Source: a virus
Direction: 5' to 3' (one strand)
Virus record (IMG/VR): IMGVR_UViG_3300038540_000025
Span: 1 to 5,768 of that record
Length of the DNA: 5,768 nucleotides
Below are positions 1-5,768 of the stretch, piece after piece. Position numbers and translations under genes: made by a program. How positions within the stretch are numbered: the stretch's first letter is position 1; each line of letters starts with the position of its first letter. A model generated the notes under the pieces. That model ran no database searches. It worked only from the letters and a program-made list of their open reading frames with translations, and was not told the origin of the DNA.

Positions 1-107
1 ATTTATACTATCCAATTTCGCATTACCTGTATTTACAGCTAACAATTTTAAATTTTGTTTCGCAATATCAGTATCTACCCCTGCAGTCTTATCTGCATTT
101 ACATTTT
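1..107. repeat. Terminal direct repeat, copy 1 (identical to 5662..5768); overlap of a circular assembly
   Basis: Read base by base: atttatactatccaatttcgcattacctgtatttacagctaacaattttaaattttgtttcgcaatatcagtatctacccctgcagtcttatctgcatttacatttt occurs at both window ends. Confidence 0.95.
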
Positions 108-534
108 TCGACCTTGCTTCTGCCTCTTTAGCTTTAGTATCTGCTTCCAAATTCTTCATAGTTAACATTCTTTCTGCTAATTGCATACCTAACTCCATGC
201 CTTTACTCTTAGATACTCCTGTATATTGAGGGCTTGGCATACTTGCACTACCTGTAGCAACTTGTGTCGTACCACCGGCTCCACCTTTTCCATACATTAA
301 ACCGGCATTAACACCGGCTTTTTTCATTTGTTTTACCTGTGCATCATAATTCGTTTTATCCCACAATTCTAACTGTTTCTTCATGTTAAACTCAGTAATT
401 CTATTACTTGCATCTACTTGAATATCACTCATTTGTTTAGCTTGTTGTGTATATCCTGATGTACTTCCACCAAATATACCCCCCAATACTTGACCCGCAC
501 CTCCTATCAGTGCACTTGTTACCATTGGATTCAT
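1..534 (-). CDS. DNA pilot / minor capsid protein (VP2- or H-like), N-terminal 178 codons. The ORF continues across the circular junction into 5661..5176, giving 339 aa in total.
   Basis: ATG at 534..532. I translated every triplet of 1..534 on the minus strand and found no stop. The frame is continuous with the 5176..5706 ORF (position 45 = 5706). The N-terminus is MNPMVTSALIGGAGQVLGGIFGGSTSGYTQQAKQM...NRITEFNMKKQLELWDKTNYDAQVKQMKKAGVNAGLMYGKGGAGG. A Gly-rich N-terminus followed by an F-N...W...Y..QV..MK.AG.N block is what I recall for gokusho-type VP2 proteins. Confidence 0.8.
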   Translation of the reverse strand, partial: MNPMVTSALIGGAGQVLGGIFGGSTSGYTQQAKQMSDIQVDASNRITEFNMKKQLELWDKTNYDAQVKQMKKAGVNAGLMYGKGGAGGTTQVATGSASMPSPQYTGVSKSKGMELGMQLAERMLTMKNLEADTKAKEAEARSKNVNADKTAGVDTDIAKQNLKLLAVNTGNAKLDSIN

Positions 535-575
535 AATATTATAATTTATTGTTAATTGTTTTTCTCCCTTTTTCT

Positions 576-594
576 TAAAAAGGGATTCTACCCT
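576..594. other. Hairpin in the VP2-upstream intergenic region (stem cccttttt/aaaaaggg, loop ctt). GGG 592..594 can alternatively pair with CCC 601..603.
   Basis: 8-bp inverted repeat 576..583 / 587..594, read directly. It lies 42 to 60 nt upstream of the VP2 ATG on the coding strand. Function unknown. Confidence 0.3.
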
Positions 595-670
595 CTTGAT
601 AATATAGTATATACGCGTACCATAGTTTTAAAAAAATATTATTCTTAATAGTCGCGTATTCTAATTAATT

Positions 671-688
671 AGGCTCCCGAAGGAGCCT
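671..688 (-). terminator. GC-rich stem-loop immediately 3' of the capsid-module genes; on the coding strand it reads aggctcc-UUCG-ggagcct
   Basis: 7-bp perfect stem (671..677 / 682..688) with a 4-nt loop. On the minus strand this is a C(UUCG)G tetraloop. It starts 13 nt after the TAG stop (703..701) of the 99-aa ORF. It is GC-rich in an otherwise AT-rich spacer. There is no clean U-tract after it, so it could instead be an ssDNA structural signal. Confidence 0.45.
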
Positions 689-700
689 ATTAATAACCAT

Positions 701-1000
701 CTAATCTACTGCAGTATCAACTGCTTCGTCATTATCATCTTTTACTACAGTCATCTTAGCACTCAATTGTTTTGATGCTTCAACTTTCGATCTAGCTTCT
801 ACAGCTATATCAAATCTATCTTCTCTGATATTAGTACCTGAAGGTACTACACCATTATCTTCACTATATGTTAAAGTTATTCTATCGTTTAAACTATCGC
901 CATTATTTAATTTTCTAGCAATAGCAAGTTCCAATGGTTCTGCTACATATGACTGTTTAGCAACCATACCACCACCTCTTACAAAAATGTTTCTTTTCAT
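701..1000 (-). CDS. Hypothetical 99-aa protein directly downstream of the capsid gene (possible scaffolding or other morphogenesis protein)
   Basis: ATG 1000..998 lies 4 nt after the VP1 stop (1007..1005). It is on the same strand as all other genes, ends 13 nt before the hairpin, and has an acidic C-terminal tail, DDNDEAVDTAVD. I recognise no family from the sequence. Confidence 0.6.
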   Translation of the reverse strand: MKRNIFVRGGGMVAKQSYVAEPLELAIARKLNNGDSLNDRITLTYSEDNGVVPSGTNIREDRFDIAVEARSKVEASKQLSAKMTVVKDDNDEAVDTAVD

Positions 1001-1004
1001 GTTA

Positions 1005-3062
1005 TTATAAATTAGGCATTTGTTTACTACTCATTTTACGTCTTGCAAATATATCTACCTTAATCTGCGTCCAAAAGTTCTGCGCATCTAACGAAGTATC
1101 AGCAAATATGTAATTAAATTTACTTGGGTCTATGTATGTAGTTAAGTCTTTTATAAAAAAGTGCTTATCTTCATCTGTTCTCCAATCATATCGTCTGTTC
1201 AATGTCATAAACATCTGGTTATCTTGTACTGCAAAATTTCCGTAACATTTATTAACATCCGTCATGTAATGTAACCAACTTGGCTGTTTTCCTGCAGACC
1301 GAAAAATAGGTCTGCTTGTTGTTTCATCACCTCCTGTTGTATCTATTTGAGTTTCCCAAAAAGCCATTCTATCTGTACTCAACTCTTGAAATGCTATTGC
1401 ATCCAGATCAGGTTTATGAAACTCATCAAAATTCTCCAAATTTGTATCCCACTCATTACCTTGACTATAATCTATTCTAGGAGTAATACTGATTATACCC
1501 ATAATATAACTAGGTTCATCAACACTAACAGATACATAACCGCCTTTCTTTTTATTAGCCATAATACCGCGACCTCCAATTGTACCCAATGGTTGATCAC
1601 TTCCTGTATTATTACTAATAACTTCCTGAAAAACTAATTCCTTTGATAAGCCACCTATATACATCGGACTACTAACACCACCGTCTCTTTTTTCATCATA
1701 AATAGCTTGTACCCAATCATCAAATCTACCACCTGTCACTGCTATTCTATTAAGCATCTCCCATAACTTTTTGTTCAATGCTAATTCATTTAATGATAGT
1801 TTGTTATCTACAATATTCACATCTGTTATAGTATTTATACCATTATCTCCGTCAATCCATTCTGCATTCATCCAATTATTATACATATCTGATTGATAAG
1901 TCTTTAAACCCAAACCTTCCTGCGTACTCGCAATACTAAATCTCCAATGATTTGTCATTTGATTACTACCTTCAAAAATATCCTTATAAGGACTTTGTAG
2001 AAAATCATTTATTACAACTGTCTCACCTAAACCTGTATTGTTTAATACAAAATCCTTCATGTCATCAATATTTTTCAGTGGGAACCTTTTAATTGTAGGA
2101 TACTGACCGATACTACTTGAACCATCATTGAACTCAACATTGTAAAACAATTCGTTTCCCAATCTTATATTCGTTGGAAATTGATATGGAGTAATTCTTT
2201 CACAAAATAACTCTTTCGAGTCTTCATCATAATATACTCCTTCAAATATTTCACTAATATATTTTCTACCCAAAAATTCTGTATTATCATTATTATATAC
2301 ATTTAATAATAATTTTCTATAATCAAAATTAGTCGTAGTATTAAACCGTACTTCTAACCTATTAATACTACCATAAGATGTTGAATTAGGCCCTGCATCA
2401 TTCATATAAATAGGATATATATCTCCGTCTGTTTGTCTTAATTGTCCTTCAACAATTGTAACAGCCCAAAAGCTTGGGTTATGTATTAATGCACCTTCTT
2501 CTTCTTGTACATTTGCATAATATTGTTTATAAATATCCCAATACATCAATAAAGGTACCGCATTAAAATATCTAGAAACTTTCATATCTTCATAATCTTC
2601 ATTAGGGACTCTTGGAGTACCAATACCTCTAATTCCTAAATAACTCAATATACTACTGGTATTAACTTGCTGATTCTCCAACGGTTTGGTAAAGTCCAAA
2701 TAATTACCTCTTACCAGCATTTGTGGTAGTTTCACTTGTGCCATATCCATACCAATATTCATTTTATTCTGAACAAGTACTTTGTTATATAGTCTTATAG
2801 GAATACTAAACACATCTAATTGTACCTTATAACTTCCAAATAAAGCACTTACAGTTGGGTGCGTCATTACATCTACATCAAGATTAATCTTGAGACTATC
2901 ACCAGGCAACGCCAATTTATTCATAAAAGGTACTAAAGTGCCAGCACTCATTGTAGACCTCCATGTACTTCCGATATCGTGGTTTGAGTAACCAACATAA
3001 TGTACAATGTTTTCAAGCTTACCGCCTGATCCTAATCTATTACCTCCTAATTGTGTTTTCAT
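1005..3062 (-). CDS. Major capsid protein (Microviridae VP1/F family), 685 aa
   Basis: Conserved-looking blocks include STMSAGTLVPFMNKLALPGDSLKINLDVDV, FSIPIRLYN, YWDIYKQYYAN, LVFQEVISN...LGTIGGRG, EPSYIMGIISITPRIDYSQG and PDLDAIAFQEL. These match my recollection of the microvirus F/VP1 jelly-roll protein. It is the largest ORF in the genome, as expected for this family. Confidence 0.92.
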   Translation of the reverse strand: MKTQLGGNRLGSGGKLENIVHYVGYSNHDIGSTWRSTMSAGTLVPFMNKLALPGDSLKINLDVDVMTHPTVSALFGSYKVQLDVFSIPIRLYNKVLVQNKMNIGMDMAQVKLPQMLVRGNYLDFTKPLENQQVNTSSILSYLGIRGIGTPRVPNEDYEDMKVSRYFNAVPLLMYWDIYKQYYANVQEEEGALIHNPSFWAVTIVEGQLRQTDGDIYPIYMNDAGPNSTSYGSINRLEVRFNTTTNFDYRKLLLNVYNNDNTEFLGRKYISEIFEGVYYDEDSKELFCERITPYQFPTNIRLGNELFYNVEFNDGSSSIGQYPTIKRFPLKNIDDMKDFVLNNTGLGETVVINDFLQSPYKDIFEGSNQMTNHWRFSIASTQEGLGLKTYQSDMYNNWMNAEWIDGDNGINTITDVNIVDNKLSLNELALNKKLWEMLNRIAVTGGRFDDWVQAIYDEKRDGGVSSPMYIGGLSKELVFQEVISNNTGSDQPLGTIGGRGIMANKKKGGYVSVSVDEPSYIMGIISITPRIDYSQGNEWDTNLENFDEFHKPDLDAIAFQELSTDRMAFWETQIDTTGGDETTSRPIFRSAGKQPSWLHYMTDVNKCYGNFAVQDNQMFMTLNRRYDWRTDEDKHFFIKDLTTYIDPSKFNYIFADTSLDAQNFWTQIKVDIFARRKMSSKQMPNL

Positions 3063-3304
3063 TTCTTTAAATTTAAATTGTTAAAAGCTTCAAATAATTG
3101 CATAACTCTACCCGCATCTAATAAATTCGCATTCAAATTTACCTTATTTTCATCCTGATCTTGATACAGTATTGTATTACCTACTGCAAGCATCCAATTA
3201 TCATTATTATTCTCCTTAATTATCGAATACGGAGTCCCTTTTATTGACTTGATAATTATATCATCACTTTCTACTACTATTTCTGTTGAGTTTAGTGTAT
3301 TCAT
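3059..3304 (-). CDS. Hypothetical 81-aa protein between the lysis-like genes and the capsid gene
   Basis: Its ATG 3304..3302 overlaps the stop of the upstream gene (TAATG). Its TGA 3061..3059 overlaps the VP1 ATG (ATGA). The protein is Asn/Asp-rich with no transmembrane segment and no family I can name. Confidence 0.55.
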   Translation of the reverse strand: MNTLNSTEIVVESDDIIIKSIKGTPYSIIKENNNDNWMLAVGNTILYQDQDENKVNLNANLLDAGRVMQLFEAFNNLNLKK

Positions 3305-3702
3305 TACTTTATTGTTAAAATTATTTTTTCTGATTTACTTTTTACTTCGAGTATATTCATTAACTTTTCGAAAGCTAGTTTACTATTAAGTACAAACCTG
3401 TTATCTTGACTCCTATTTGTACCTACTAATATACACCCTTCAGTATCCATTGCAGAGTTACCCGTATGTATCCTTATCCCTTTAAAGTTAGGGACATTTA
3501 ATACCAAAGGCAAAAGCCTTTTAAACTTTCTACTATACGAAATAATTATCTCGTAACTACCTTTAGGGATTGCAGTCATACCTTTGACTTTTACATCCCT
3601 TTCTACATCTTCTAGAGTGTAACCAAAAAAGCGTCCGTCAACAAACAGACGCCCAATTGTACATTCCTCCGATATCCATTCTCTTTGGATTACTAACAAC
3701 AT
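3304..3702 (-). CDS. Putative peptidoglycan-acting enzyme (endolysin candidate), 132 aa, DUF5675-like with a YkuD-like His/Cys motif
   Basis: I prefer the ATG at 3702..3700 over the GTG at 3771 used by the ORF track, because the upstream 59-aa ORF stops at 3706..3704, 1 nt before this ATG. Motifs are TIGRLFVDG..FGYTLED, AIPKGSYEI and GIRIHTGNSAMDTEGCILVG (His codon 3468..3466, Cys codon 3435..3433). From memory these resemble the DUF5675 family and the H...[ST]xGC[IV] signature of L,D-transpeptidase-fold proteins. Confidence 0.7.
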   Translation of the reverse strand: MLLVIQREWISEECTIGRLFVDGRFFGYTLEDVERDVKVKGMTAIPKGSYEIIISYSRKFKRLLPLVLNVPNFKGIRIHTGNSAMDTEGCILVGTNRSQDNRFVLNSKLAFEKLMNILEVKSKSEKIILTIK

Positions 3703-3703
3703 A

Positions 3704-3883
3704 CTATTCTTTTTTCTTTCTAAGTAATCCGAATAGTGTAGCCAATCCAATAAGGATTTGCACAACAACACTTACTACATTGTTAACATCATCGGGAGAA
3801 ATATCACCCGCACTTTGTACCGCAGTACTAGCACCAATGCCTAACGCACCAATACTTACTTTTACAATACTGTCTTTCAGCAT
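3704..3883 (-). CDS. Small 59-aa membrane protein, holin-like (not in the supplied ORF track)
   Basis: Hand translation of the minus strand from ATG 3883..3881 to TAG 3706..3704 gives MLKDSIVKVSIGALGIGASTAVQSAGDISPDDVNNVVSVVVQILIGLATLFGLLRKKKE. There is a weakly hydrophobic Gly/Ala-rich segment, then an acidic turn (DISPDD), then a strongly hydrophobic 19-residue segment (VVSVVVQILIGLATLFGLL), then a basic tail (RKKKE). It is the first gene after the long intergenic region and is abutted to the enzyme gene. Confidence 0.5.
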   Translation of the reverse strand: MLKDSIVKVSIGALGIGASTAVQSAGDISPDDVNNVVSVVVQILIGLATLFGLLRKKKE

Positions 3884-4117
3884 AATAAACTAATTTAAGT
3901 TAATAAAATAAATTTGTCTCATTAAGACGTACAAATATTATAATAAATATTTATACCATTCTGTTAACAAAATGTTAAATTATATTCACTCACCAATATC
4001 TAATCTCTATGTAAAAATCTTATTTACCTCCTTCAATTCTAGCTAGCCGTGCGGCAATGAGCACACGCAAACAACAAATTCCGCTTTATACTAGTTCTTC
4101 AAGCCCTCTATTCATCA

Positions 4118-4125
4118 CAAATTTA
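4118..4125 (-). promoter_or_regulatory. Candidate Bacteroidota-type -7 promoter box (TAAATTTG on the coding strand)
   Basis: Plus-strand caaattta at 4118..4125 is TAnnTTTG on the minus strand, the Bacteroides -7 consensus. I found no well-spaced TTTG -33 element. It lies about 235 nt upstream of the first ATG of the lysis/capsid gene block. A chance match is quite possible in AT-rich DNA. Confidence 0.15.
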
Positions 4126-4186
4126 CGTATATTCAATAAATAAATAATATTAATACCTATATATCATAACACATATAAATACAACA

Positions 4187-4206
4187 AAGGGGCTAAAAAG
4201 CCCCTT
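4187..4206 (-). terminator. GC-rich stem-loop overlapping the Rep stop codon (aaggggct-aaaa-agcccctt)
   Basis: 8-bp perfect stem 4187..4194 / 4199..4206 with a 4-nt loop. The Rep TAA is at 4207..4205. On the coding strand the hairpin is followed by the T-rich run tgttgtatttatatgt, which fits an intrinsic terminator closing the VP2-VP4 block. Confidence 0.5.
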
Positions 4207-5176
4207 ATTTCAAACGTTGTTTTCTTATTATATTCCTTTTCTGATTTTCATACATTCTCTTATTCCAATTAATTTCGTTATTTCCATATCCTAACTTCAT
4301 ATTCATATATTGAGCACTTTTTAATAACTTATAATAATGTTCATCATCAACTGCCTTTATATTCATAACCCATCGTTCATCTTTATCCAATTTATCTAAC
4401 CATAACCTTTCTCTTTCATTCTCATTATATAACATATTCCGATAATATATTGGATTTGCTATTTTTCTACCATTATCTAACCTATATGTATCTTCAGTAT
4501 TTTTACCTTTATATTTATGGTCATTATATTTATCATCCTTTTCGTAATATTTACCTATACCTTTACTACATAATATTTTAGGATTATAATACTCGTGTTC
4601 TTTATCTAACTTATTTACATACTTAACCATATAGTTCACGGTTTTATTATTCACATAACCATTATGTTCATCACCATTCCAAACTATACCATAACCCCAT
4701 CTATCAGTTATATATTTAGGTTCTTTATCTGTAAACAATATACCATGTAAATGTATATGTTCAAATTTACCATGACCCAATTCTGTAACAAACCAATGCC
4801 TTACACTCTTTTTTTCAAATTTTCTCCAACGTTCCAAAAAACGTCTCATTGCTATAGTTACCATTTCATTGTCTCTGTCATATCCACTCAAATCACCTTC
4901 TATTGCTTTATCTAATTCCTTTATACTTTCTGTTGAAAAAGTTAAAGTTATAAATTTTCCATTCTTATTTACCTTTATTTCTTCCAATAATCTTATCTTC
5001 CATTCATTTGCTTTCTGCTTCTTACACTGCATACATCTACCACATCCTATTGGTACATATTTAACTCTTTCATCAGGCTTACCAAATTCATCTAATGGTA
5101 ATGGGGGGATAACCCCCCCATTCTTCTTATTTGCCCTGTATTTAGGGTTTTCCATTAATCTAGGGAATAAACACAT
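4205..5176 (-). CDS. Rolling-circle replication initiation protein (Microviridae VP4/A-like, HUH superfamily), 323 aa
   Basis: Motif I is FITLTF (4954..4937). The HUH motif is EHIHLHGILF, with H-I-H-L-H checked at 4759..4745. The two-tyrosine motif III is YMVKY, checked at 4633..4619. There is also an N-terminal Cys cluster, CGRCMQC. Its start overlaps the VP2 stop as TAATG (5178..5174). Confidence 0.9.
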   Translation of the reverse strand: MCLFPRLMENPKYRANKKNGGVIPPLPLDEFGKPDERVKYVPIGCGRCMQCKKQKANEWKIRLLEEIKVNKNGKFITLTFSTESIKELDKAIEGDLSGYDRDNEMVTIAMRRFLERWRKFEKKSVRHWFVTELGHGKFEHIHLHGILFTDKEPKYITDRWGYGIVWNGDEHNGYVNNKTVNYMVKYVNKLDKEHEYYNPKILCSKGIGKYYEKDDKYNDHKYKGKNTEDTYRLDNGRKIANPIYYRNMLYNENERERLWLDKLDKDERWVMNIKAVDDEHYYKLLKSAQYMNMKLGYGNNEINWNKRMYENQKRNIIRKQRLK

Positions 5177-5768
5177 TAGTATGTACTACCTTTATAGTTC
5201 CCTAATTGGCCAATCTTTACTTTAGGTTTGAATAATTTGGCACCTTCTAACAATAACTTACGTTCTTGAATATCTAAACCGTGTTCTTTTAACAATACAT
5301 CAATATCATACATAGCACCCTCACGATTCCATTTTTCATCCTTATTCTCGTTTTCCCAATCTATACCTCGTGTTTGTGAAGTTACATTTACTATTTTAGC
5401 CATTAACATATCTAATTCTGCAGGTGCTATCTGTATTTCCCACTCCAATAATTGATTATTCAATAAAGCTTTATATGCTTCCCTTTCTGCTATTTTAACG
5501 TTATAATCAATCGTTCTCTGTTTTAAATCTGCATCAAGTCCTTGCTCTTTAATACGTACATCTAACAAGTCCAATTCTTTATTAACTCTTTCAACATTAG
5601 CCATAAAAGTATTCTCTTTTAATTCGTAATCAATACTTTGGATAGAATTATTTATTTCTTTATTTATACTATCCAATTTCGCATTACCTGTATTTACAGC
5701 TAACAATTTTAAATTTTGTTTCGCAATATCAGTATCTACCCCTGCAGTCTTATCTGCATTTACATTTT
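5176..5768 (-). CDS. DNA pilot / minor capsid protein (VP2- or H-like), C-terminal part. Bases 5662..5768 duplicate 1..107, and the true start is the ATG at 534..532.
   Basis: The track ORF 5176..5706 begins at a TTG (5706..5704 = 45..43), which is an internal Leu codon of the longer wrap-around ORF. The frame stays open to the window end. The C-terminal half is Lys/Glu/Leu-rich with heptad-like spacing (coiled-coil-like), as expected for a pilot protein. Confidence 0.8.
   Translation of the reverse strand, partial: NVNADKTAGVDTDIAKQNLKLLAVNTGNAKLDSINKEINNSIQSIDYELKENTFMANVERVNKELDLLDVRIKEQGLDADLKQRTIDYNVKIAEREAYKALLNNQLLEWEIQIAPAELDMLMAKIVNVTSQTRGIDWENENKDEKWNREGAMYDIDVLLKEHGLDIQERKLLLEGAKLFKPKVKIGQLGNYKGSTY
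5662..5768. repeat. Terminal direct repeat, copy 2 (identical to 1..107)
   Basis: See copy 1. The match is exact over all 107 nt by direct reading. Confidence 0.95.

Follow-up and report, generated by a model that had tools for sequence, protein, structure and literature searches.

A candidate two-gene lysis cassette pairing a small membrane protein with a DUF5675 protein in a microvirus genome

Protein E of the microvirus phiX174 is a lysis protein that inhibits MraY, is overprinted within gene D, carries an N-terminal transmembrane domain, and needs no enzyme. Class II holins, or pinholins, such as S68 of phage 21, have two hydrophobic helical segments, of which the first is weakly hydrophobic and rich in Gly and Ala, and a basic C-terminal cytoplasmic tail, and the endolysin gene directly follows the holin gene. 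Here we analyzed a 5,768-nucleotide stretch of viral DNA (IMG/VR record IMGVR_UViG_3300038540_000025, positions 1 to 5,768; the whole stretch is called the window) in which a gene for a 59-amino-acid small membrane protein, here called smTM, abuts a gene for a 132-amino-acid protein of the DUF5675 family. The two genes lie in an accessory slot between the Rep gene and the capsid block, and we consider it somewhat probable that they constitute a two-component lysis cassette of the holin-like/endolysin type, with which the phage would lyse its host in the manner of large tailed phages.

Microviruses that carry enzyme genes are already known. M15_3 peptidases were acquired horizontally by microviruses, some adjoining unknown open reading frames (ORFs) (Roux et al. 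2012, PMC3394797); "lysis-associated accessory genes" encoding peptidases or amidases occur in several microvirus families (Kirchberger et al. 2022, PMC9239249); an M15 peptidase is present in cultured Occultatumvirinae (PMC11499846); and "lys" genes have been described in Rhizobium microviruses (PMC9512667). The original prediction, made from the letters of the window, had called such a cassette an unusual lysis strategy for a single-stranded DNA (ssDNA) phage, a claim that does not hold because putative endolysins have been reported in many microvirus lineages since 2012. The window enzyme resembles the M15_3 and "endolysin" genes in being a horizontally acquired small enzyme of muralytic type in an accessory slot, gained independently in several lineages. 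It differs in being a putative Cys/His protein of the DUF5675 family rather than a zinc metallopeptidase of the M15 family, and the window adds a conserved family of membrane partners. No description of DUF5675 as a microvirus gene, or of a conserved membrane partner, was found in the literature. We conclude that what is new here is the occurrence of DUF5675 together with a membrane partner in microviruses.

Every gene of the window, which has a GC content of 31.6%, lies on the minus strand. The smTM gene (3883..3704), the holin-like candidate, runs from an ATG at 3883..3881 to a TAG at 3706..3704, and the DUF5675 gene (3702..3304), which encodes a putative Cys/His peptidoglycan peptidase and is the endolysin candidate, runs from an ATG at 3702..3700 to a TAA at 3306..3304. 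The spacer between the stop of the first and the start of the second is 1 nucleotide (nt), and the candidate cassette spans 580 bp. An 81-amino-acid gene (3304..3059) overlaps the DUF5675 gene by TAATG and the VP1 major capsid gene (1005..3062, minus strand) by ATGA, such that VP1 is the downstream member of the same coupled block. The layout given in the original prediction, comprising the 59-codon ORF with its RKKKE tail, the 1-nt gap, the motif-bearing 132-residue ORF, and both overlaps, was recovered at every position.

The 132-residue protein matched Pfam DUF5675 (PF18925) with an E value of 3e-35 and a score of 120.9 bits against a cutoff of 26.7, over residues 5 to 118 of the protein and positions 2 to 112 of the 114-position profile. 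It also matched phrog_1501, annotated as "unknown function," and neither it nor smTM gave a match in NCBIfam. DUF5675 is a large family (8,044 clusters at 50% identity with an E value of at most 1e-3), and the window member is a stand-alone domain without a signal peptide, for which AlphaFold2 returned a model with a predicted local distance difference test score (pLDDT) of 95. The protein contains the sequence IRIH79TGNSAMDTEGC90ILVG, and the motif H-x-G-N-x3-D-T-E-G-C-I-L-V-G within it is encoded by codons H79 to G94 (3421..3468, minus strand), with His79 at 3468..3466 and Cys90 at 3435..3433. When 159 diverse family members were compared, H79 was conserved in 158, G89 in all 159, and C90 in 158, and the core residues H79, G81, N82, T87, G89, and C90 were each kept in 92 to 100%. 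An alternative GTG start at 3771, which would yield a 155-residue form, was rejected, as the extension runs into the smTM gene, lacks hydrophobic character, and has no counterpart in homologues, in which the domain starts at residue 2 to 5.

The genomic company kept by DUF5675 points toward lysis. Among the 150 best family representatives, 89 were bare domains; in other members the domain was joined to PG_binding_1, GH24 Phage_lysozyme, SH3_3, or a true YkuD/Tlde1 domain, or the protein had a membrane anchor at its N or C terminus. In a fragment of a tailed phage, the gene for P0007, at 57% identity the closest of the homologues examined, overlaps a Phage_holin_4_1 gene at its end, a second homologue of 57% identity (P0002) lies within a Flavobacterium psychrophilum prophage close to its integrase end, and a homologue in a Thiohalocapsa phage, annotated as "peptidoglycan hydrolase," lies near an Rz-like spanin. 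In the crAss-like phage crAss001 the homologue is gp30, annotated as "L,D-carboxypeptidase/transpeptidase." Like its relatives, gp30 shares 37 to 39% full-length identity with the window protein and lies just downstream of small predicted lysis/holin genes, here gp27 ("lysis regulatory protein") and gp28 ("lysis regulatory protein/holin"), and the same arrangement was found in cr85_1. The crAss phages differ from the window phage in being tailed double-stranded DNA phages of ~100 kb whose putative holins are unrelated in sequence to smTM, and their lysis module is itself a prediction; the hosts of both are likely Bacteroidota. We place DUF5675 at the cell wall and in lysis because of its gene neighborhoods, its domain fusions, and the active-site-like conservation of its motif. 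We conclude that the 132-residue protein is probably a wall-acting lysis enzyme.

One way in which DUF5675 could act on the wall is as a YkuD-type enzyme. The Tlde1/Tae5 (DUF2778) effectors of the type VI secretion system and YkuD (MEROPS C82) act on the peptidoglycan stem peptide and share with DUF5675 an H-x-G...(S/T)-x-G-C motif in which His and Cys align. Tlde1 is a His/Cys L,D-carboxypeptidase whose periplasmic action halts division and leads to swelling and lysis. The His and Cys required for a YkuD-type catalytic pair are present in the window protein in the H...G-C arrangement, and hhalign set these two residues, His79 and Cys90, against the catalytic pair of B. subtilis YkuD and that of the C-terminal Tlde1/YkuD domain of P0190. 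The Tlde1_dom profile scored the window protein at 15.6 bits, below its cutoff of 30.1; subthreshold Tlde1_dom hits covered the motif in 22 of 32 homologues (best E value, 4e-4), and YkuD hits appeared in 2. The likeness stays at the level of the motif, however, and the His-Cys spacing is 11 residues in the window protein and longer in YkuD. Moreover, a Foldseek search of BFVD with the 132-residue model returned only other DUF5675 proteins. A place among the YkuD/C82 enzymes is supported only in part, and DUF5675 was not assigned to the YkuD family, given profile scores below threshold, no shared fold in the PDB, and an alignment confined to the motif. Of the families against which the protein was to be checked, DUF5675 was confirmed, whereas YkuD/L,D-transpeptidase gave neither a significant match nor a shared fold. 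By reasoning from the conserved pair, and with Tlde1 as the precedent, we propose that DUF5675 may use a Cys/His peptidase mechanism.

The 59-codon ORF encodes MLKDSIVKVSIGALGIGASTAVQSAGDISPDDVNNVVSVVVQILIGLATLFGLLRKKKE. Hydropathy indicated one strong transmembrane segment, as the original prediction had expected and as had been set beforehand as a check: the helix VVSVVVQILIGLATLFGLL (codons 36 to 54; 3722..3778, minus strand) has a 19-residue Kyte-Doolittle mean of 2.52 and a summed Hessa value of -0.5, and it is followed directly by the basic tail RKKKE (3707-3721, minus strand). Residues 4 to 24 are rich in Gly, Ala, and Ser and weakly hydrophobic (Kyte-Doolittle mean, 1.24; Hessa, +7.4). 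AlphaFold2 modeled helices at residues 2 to 25 and 30 to 58 with G-D-I-S-P between them; confidence was high for the second helix alone and was best in the transmembrane region (pLDDT 83 to 92). By the positive-inside rule, the C terminus of smTM would be cytoplasmic, with the protein either a single span with its N terminus outside or a hairpin.

Comparison with relatives indicated that smTM is a real gene under purifying selection. The orthologue in the relative L011 (P0122) was 78% identical, and the ratio of nonsynonymous to synonymous substitution was 0.108 (pS, 0.63; pN, 0.13) with synonymous sites near saturation, on par with the value of 0.092 for Rep in the same pair of genomes. A database of 5.8 billion proteins yielded five further relatives, such that the smTM family comprises six clusters, found only in contigs of small ssDNA phages. 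The invariant residues are G12, G15, Q42, I43, I45, T49, and L53, and the polar Gln42 and Thr49 within the transmembrane helix would suit an oligomerizing, pore-lining helix.

The traits of smTM were compared with those of described lysis proteins. It is holin-like in its 59-residue size, its one transmembrane domain, and its charged C-terminal tail, and it resembles S68-type pinholins in its two-helix layout, its basic tail, and its position before the enzyme gene. It differs from the class II holins in that there is no similarity of sequence or profile and that its first helix is not predicted to insert alone. Moreover, the partner of a pinholin is anchored by a signal-anchor-release domain whereas the window enzyme is soluble, so that large holes, not pinholes, would be needed. 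Both smTM, as a candidate, and phiX174 E are small microvirus membrane proteins for lysis, yet smTM is a free-standing ORF with a C-terminal transmembrane domain that abuts an enzyme gene, and the features that define an E-type protein were not found in it. The term holin thus holds in part, in that smTM is a real, conserved membrane protein that accompanies the enzyme, and fails in part, in that smTM matches no known holin family and also has homologues in one lineage free of the enzyme. We give about an even chance to smTM being the holin-like partner of the enzyme.

If the two genes form a functional unit, they might be expected together elsewhere, and conservation of the pair in relatives had also been set beforehand as a check. 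The smTM gene co-occurred with DUF5675 in four of five lineages and was translationally abutted to it in three, lying directly upstream in the window, in L011/L012, and in L019. The close relative L011/L012, from Logan (VP1 C terminus, 89% identical; Rep, 78%), has the order smTM, DUF5675, and 81-residue gene, with an 8-nt overlap of the first two. In L019 (VP1, 48% identical) a 55-residue protein of the smTM family overlaps the start of DUF5675. A fourth contig, L100 (Logan SRR18899876; 5,389 nt), encodes a DUF5675 protein and a 56-residue smTM homologue whose C-terminal half is identical to that of the window. The pair was conserved, both genes being present in the window, L011/L012, L019, and L100; the exceptions were L018 and L102 to L104, which have smTM without an enzyme gene. 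In L018 (IMG/VR 3300000234_000180; 903-1541) a 54-residue homologue is followed by ORFs of 90 to 100 and 72 to 74 residues and then by VP1, and neither DUF5675 nor a LAS peptidase was found anywhere in the 5,985-nt contig. The lineage of L018 and L102 to L104 bears on whether smTM acts alone.

The enzyme appeared to have a history of its own. Between L011 and the window, smTM was 78% identical and DUF5675 only about 32%, and the L019 DUF5675 was 48% identical to the L011 enzyme. The window enzyme shared 56 to 58% identity with proteins of tailed-phage contigs and the Flavobacterium psychrophilum prophage but at most 41% with any microvirus copy, and a search of IMG/VR for its close relatives found none. 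The suggestion that the phage had captured the enzyme gained support from these identities, and the companion suggestion that the enzyme evolved de novo is unlikely. The simplest history suggested by the sequences is an ancestral cassette of smTM and DUF5675 in which the older, microvirus-type enzyme gene would have been replaced in situ by one captured from tailed phages of Bacteroidota while the smTM gene was kept. We conclude that this apparent enzyme swap beside a retained smTM is module mosaicism typical of lysis cassettes.

To survey what fills the accessory slot, a census was made of 83 genomes, comprising the window, L011, and 81 IMG/VR relatives with 42 to 51% VP1 identity. The core genes of the clade were Rep, a gene of ~98 amino acids (81 in the window), VP1, a gene of ~110 amino acids (99 in the window), and VP2. 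The slot between Rep and the ~98-residue gene held DUF5675 in 10 genomes, a LAS/M15-like peptidase in 8, and neither in 65, indicating that the cassette is dispensable for the clade. The LAS/M15-like peptidase (L020, L027, L029, L032, L035, L049, L056, and L089, all from IMG/VR) has 101 to 132 residues and the motif S-x-H-x-x-x-A-x-D...H-x-H, and its best Pfam match was HH_signal, the Hedgehog N-terminal signaling domain, at 23.2 bits (cutoff, 22.1). A conserved coiled-coil-like ORF of ~46 residues (cluster 6) often precedes the peptidase gene, and a short hydrophobic peptide often follows it. One family of small hydrophobic peptides (...KVxxGFxAGTQV) occurred after DUF5675 in L025 and after the LAS peptidase in L089 and L029. 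An ORF of ~40 to 44 residues with an EF-hand-like C terminus (D-L-N-x-D-G-K-I-G) followed or overlapped the 3' end of DUF5675 in six genomes (L073, L094, L075, L091, L066, and L097), where the enzyme has an amphipathic C-terminal extension of ~35 residues. Based on the census and the shared peptide families, we conclude that an enzyme with a small hydrophobic peptide is a recurring modular theme of the slot and that two unrelated enzyme families are interchangeable within it. By contrast, the 81-residue gene belongs to a cluster (p98) found in 76 of the 83 genomes, with or without an enzyme gene, and its product had no transmembrane segment and no family match in Pfam or PHROGs; it is a core gene of the clade that lies outside the lysis function.

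Unrelated microviruses also encode DUF5675, elsewhere in their genomes (Dulem virus 260, MW202581, bajarodmic virus 676, D_HF5_131, and Apis mellifera microvirus 8), where it is annotated in each case as "hypothetical protein," and at least about 20 public microvirus records carry it under that name. This distribution points to several independent acquisitions. A scan of these genomes for hydrophobic ORFs was dominated by off-frame, T-rich ORFs and was used only for non-overlapping neighbors; in bajarodmic virus 676 (L014) an unannotated hydrophobic ORF of 27 residues (4616-4699) lies 11 nt upstream of DUF5675. In Dulem virus 260 (L003, PP511797) a 71-residue ORF (4039-4254) that overlaps the DUF5675 stop has a signal-peptide-like N terminus and an L-T-S-C lipobox-like site and is o-spanin-like.

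A model of how the cassette might work can be drawn from these features. Both genes would be read with the late, structural genes through translational coupling. The 132-residue protein, because it has no signal sequence, would be made in the cytoplasm, and smTM would insert in the inner membrane by the C-terminal helix, leaving its basic tail on the cytoplasmic side, probably as a helical hairpin with the Gly/Ala-rich first helix. As smTM accumulated it would permeabilize the membrane, and the enzyme would reach the wall and, as a Cys/His peptidase, attack peptidoglycan stem peptides. What the analysis shows is the gene structure, the family membership, the conservation, the co-occurrence, and the cell-wall context of DUF5675; we infer the catalytic chemistry, the bond cut, the membrane permeabilization, the timing, and the host alike.

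A number of observations weigh against this two-component cassette, and they are given here together with the alternatives. Neither enzyme gene was present in the 65 census genomes noted above, L018 and L102 to L104 carry the smTM homologue in the equivalent place ahead of the capsid block but have no enzyme gene, and in L100 smTM and DUF5675 are not adjacent but 1.7 kb apart. The main rival accommodates all three: smTM could cause lysis or membrane toxicity by itself, as a single-gene lysis factor broadly comparable to phiX174 E or MS2 L, and gate nothing, with DUF5675 an optional booster that hastens wall breakdown once the envelope is compromised, and most relatives indeed lyse with neither gene. 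Moreover, smTM matched no known holin or other family in Pfam, PHROGs, or NCBIfam (nothing better than an E value of 0.02), a PHROGs search with all six homologues was likewise negative, and its model found no match in a fold search of BFVD. However, the co-occurrence with DUF5675 in most lineages, abutted in three, speaks for a partnership, the enzyme has no export signal and therefore needs a membrane lesion, and the architecture of smTM is unlike both E, with its N-terminal transmembrane domain and overprinted gene, and L, with its basic N terminus. We regard smTM acting on its own as unlikely.

A second set of observations concerns the enzyme itself. The hhalign probability of DUF5675 against YkuD/Tlde1 was only 2 to 13%, with nothing aligned outside the motif; Foldseek found no relative of the 132-residue model in the PDB (best E value, 0.18) despite its pLDDT; and sequence and family-profile searches of the PDB gave no meaningful match, only chance matches to Abraxas. 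No experimental activity of any DUF5675 protein was found in the searchable literature, and a 2026 preprint that classes the DUF5675 protein LysPd160 by structure alone proposes a "C82-like" lysin with significant differences. The original prediction spoke of an uncharacterized enzyme family, but the family is not anonymous: it is named in Pfam, is annotated in crAss-like phages, and has been proposed as that lysin. Rapid lysis of the endolysin type is not guaranteed, because a pure L,D-carboxypeptidase leaves cross-links uncut, and no spanin-like gene was seen in the window. Another alternative is a nonlytic pair, in which DUF5675 remodels the wall by transpeptidase or carboxypeptidase exchange or is toxin-like and lysis falls to another gene, possibly overprinted as in phiX174. 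In its favor, Tlde1, the sole analogue by motif with known biochemistry, is a carboxypeptidase/exchange enzyme and no cutter of cross-links, the crAss annotations read "carboxypeptidase/transpeptidase," and computation is unable to exclude overprinted genes (PMC9239249). Against it, Tlde1 intoxication itself ends in swelling and lysis, the fusions of the family to lysozyme and wall-binding domains and its holin and spanin neighbors indicate lysis, and none of the ORFs noticed on the coding strand was both hydrophobic and overprinted. We consider a nonlytic role improbable.

DUF5675 occurs, finally, in baseplate or large-protein contexts as well, and it might be a virion-associated hydrolase that aids DNA delivery at entry, with smTM serving an unrelated role such as superinfection exclusion or anchoring of replication or assembly; this seems more improbable still, for although the domain is part of proteins of >1,200 residues in Ralstonia jumbo phages and of gp261, which adjoins a baseplate gene of Sphingomonas phage PAU, the ssDNA Flavobacterium phage FLiP has a structural lytic transglycosylase, and the cassette is co-expressed with the capsid genes, the window protein is a bare 132-residue domain with no capsid-attachment module, microvirus T=1 particles contain a defined small set of proteins and rely on a pilot protein for delivery, holin and spanin cassettes rather than tail modules surround the nearest homologues, and small LAS peptidases can take the place of the enzyme in the slot.

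Returning to the two-component cassette, a broader proposal is that smTM founds a holin family specific to small ssDNA phages, moving horizontally between unrelated lineages and paired with interchangeable DUF5675 endolysins. Such movement is suggested by the identical C-terminal half shared by Phage_F microviruses and the rolling-circle phage of the L100 type, and we put the proposal forward tentatively, as rather short of probable. L100 encodes a rolling-circle Rep, an HNH endonuclease, and two proteins of ~230 residues without a PHROGs or Pfam match, and no Phage_F capsid gene was found in it; it may represent a kind of small ssDNA phage not described before, with lysis genes in common with microviruses.

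The remainder of the window is that of a complete circular microvirus. An exact direct repeat of 107 nt joins its ends (1-107 and 5662-5768) and is the assembly overlap of a circular genome of 5,661 nt. The features of Microviridae were all present: a Phage_F capsid protein (VP1; Pfam, 33.4 bits; phrog_514, E value of 1.8e-35), a rolling-circle Rep (5176..4205, minus strand; matches to REP_ORF2-G2P and phrog_942), a pilot-like gene, and a circle within about 4.5 to 6.5 kb. After VP1 in minus-strand order come a 99-residue ORF (1000..701) and the 339-residue pilot-like VP2 gene, which starts near 641 on the minus strand, crosses the junction, and is absent from plain ORF lists of the window. 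VP1 was matched by 518 microvirus records, with at most 49% identity to the closest named microviruses. A near-identity DNA search of GenBank phages with the whole window gave no match, and no close relatives of VP1 were found in JGI metagenome contigs or GTDB genomes.

Candidate regulatory signals were found around the cassette. The region between Rep and the cassette (3884..4206, minus strand; 321 nt) contains a terminator-like GC hairpin with a T-run directly after the Rep stop (4187-4206, minus strand), where L011 also has GC hairpins, a promoter match, and a small conserved hairpin. Terminator-like sites numbered 3 in this AT-rich genome against 0.3 expected. Another GC-rich, terminator-like hairpin, with an 11-bp stem and a T-run (3629-3654, minus strand), lies within the first 75 nt of the DUF5675 coding sequence and might attenuate expression of the enzyme. 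The promoter match (3967..3940, minus strand) is sigma-70-like, and such matches occur at chance level, not above; the Bacteroidota promoter pattern TTTG-N17-23-TAnnTTTG had two matches, none upstream of the cassette. The conserved hairpin, GTCTTAATGAGAC (GTCT-TAATG-AGAC; 3928..3916, minus strand), lies ~35 nt upstream of the smTM start, and its counterpart in a conserved block of L011 (about 4003-4015) is GTCCTAATGGGAC (GTCC-TAATG-GGAC), in which both sides of the 4-bp stem have changed in compensation; it could be a regulatory or origin-related element. L011 has two additional ORFs between Rep and smTM (3453-3704 and 3786-3989; 83 and 67 residues, without family matches), and, as both are absent from the window, the region is one where genes are gained and lost.

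The cassette bears on how most microviruses outside the phiX type lyse their hosts, a setting in which acquired peptidases had been noted before but a membrane partner had not been defined. As a minimal two-gene system it is open to direct test, and it offers a handle on DUF5675, a very large family without a solved structure and the predicted lysis enzyme of the abundant crAss-like phages of the gut. If smTM is indeed a holin family of ssDNA phages, some microviruses would run a true minimal holin-endolysin program, and DUF5675, with >8,000 sequence clusters including those of crAss-like phages, would make up a structural class of Cys/His endolysin that is new and has no relative of solved structure. 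The enzyme swap, together with the alternation with LAS peptidases, indicates that microviruses join tailed phages in trading lysis genes as modules, and such exchange qualifies the view of microviruses as genetically isolated.

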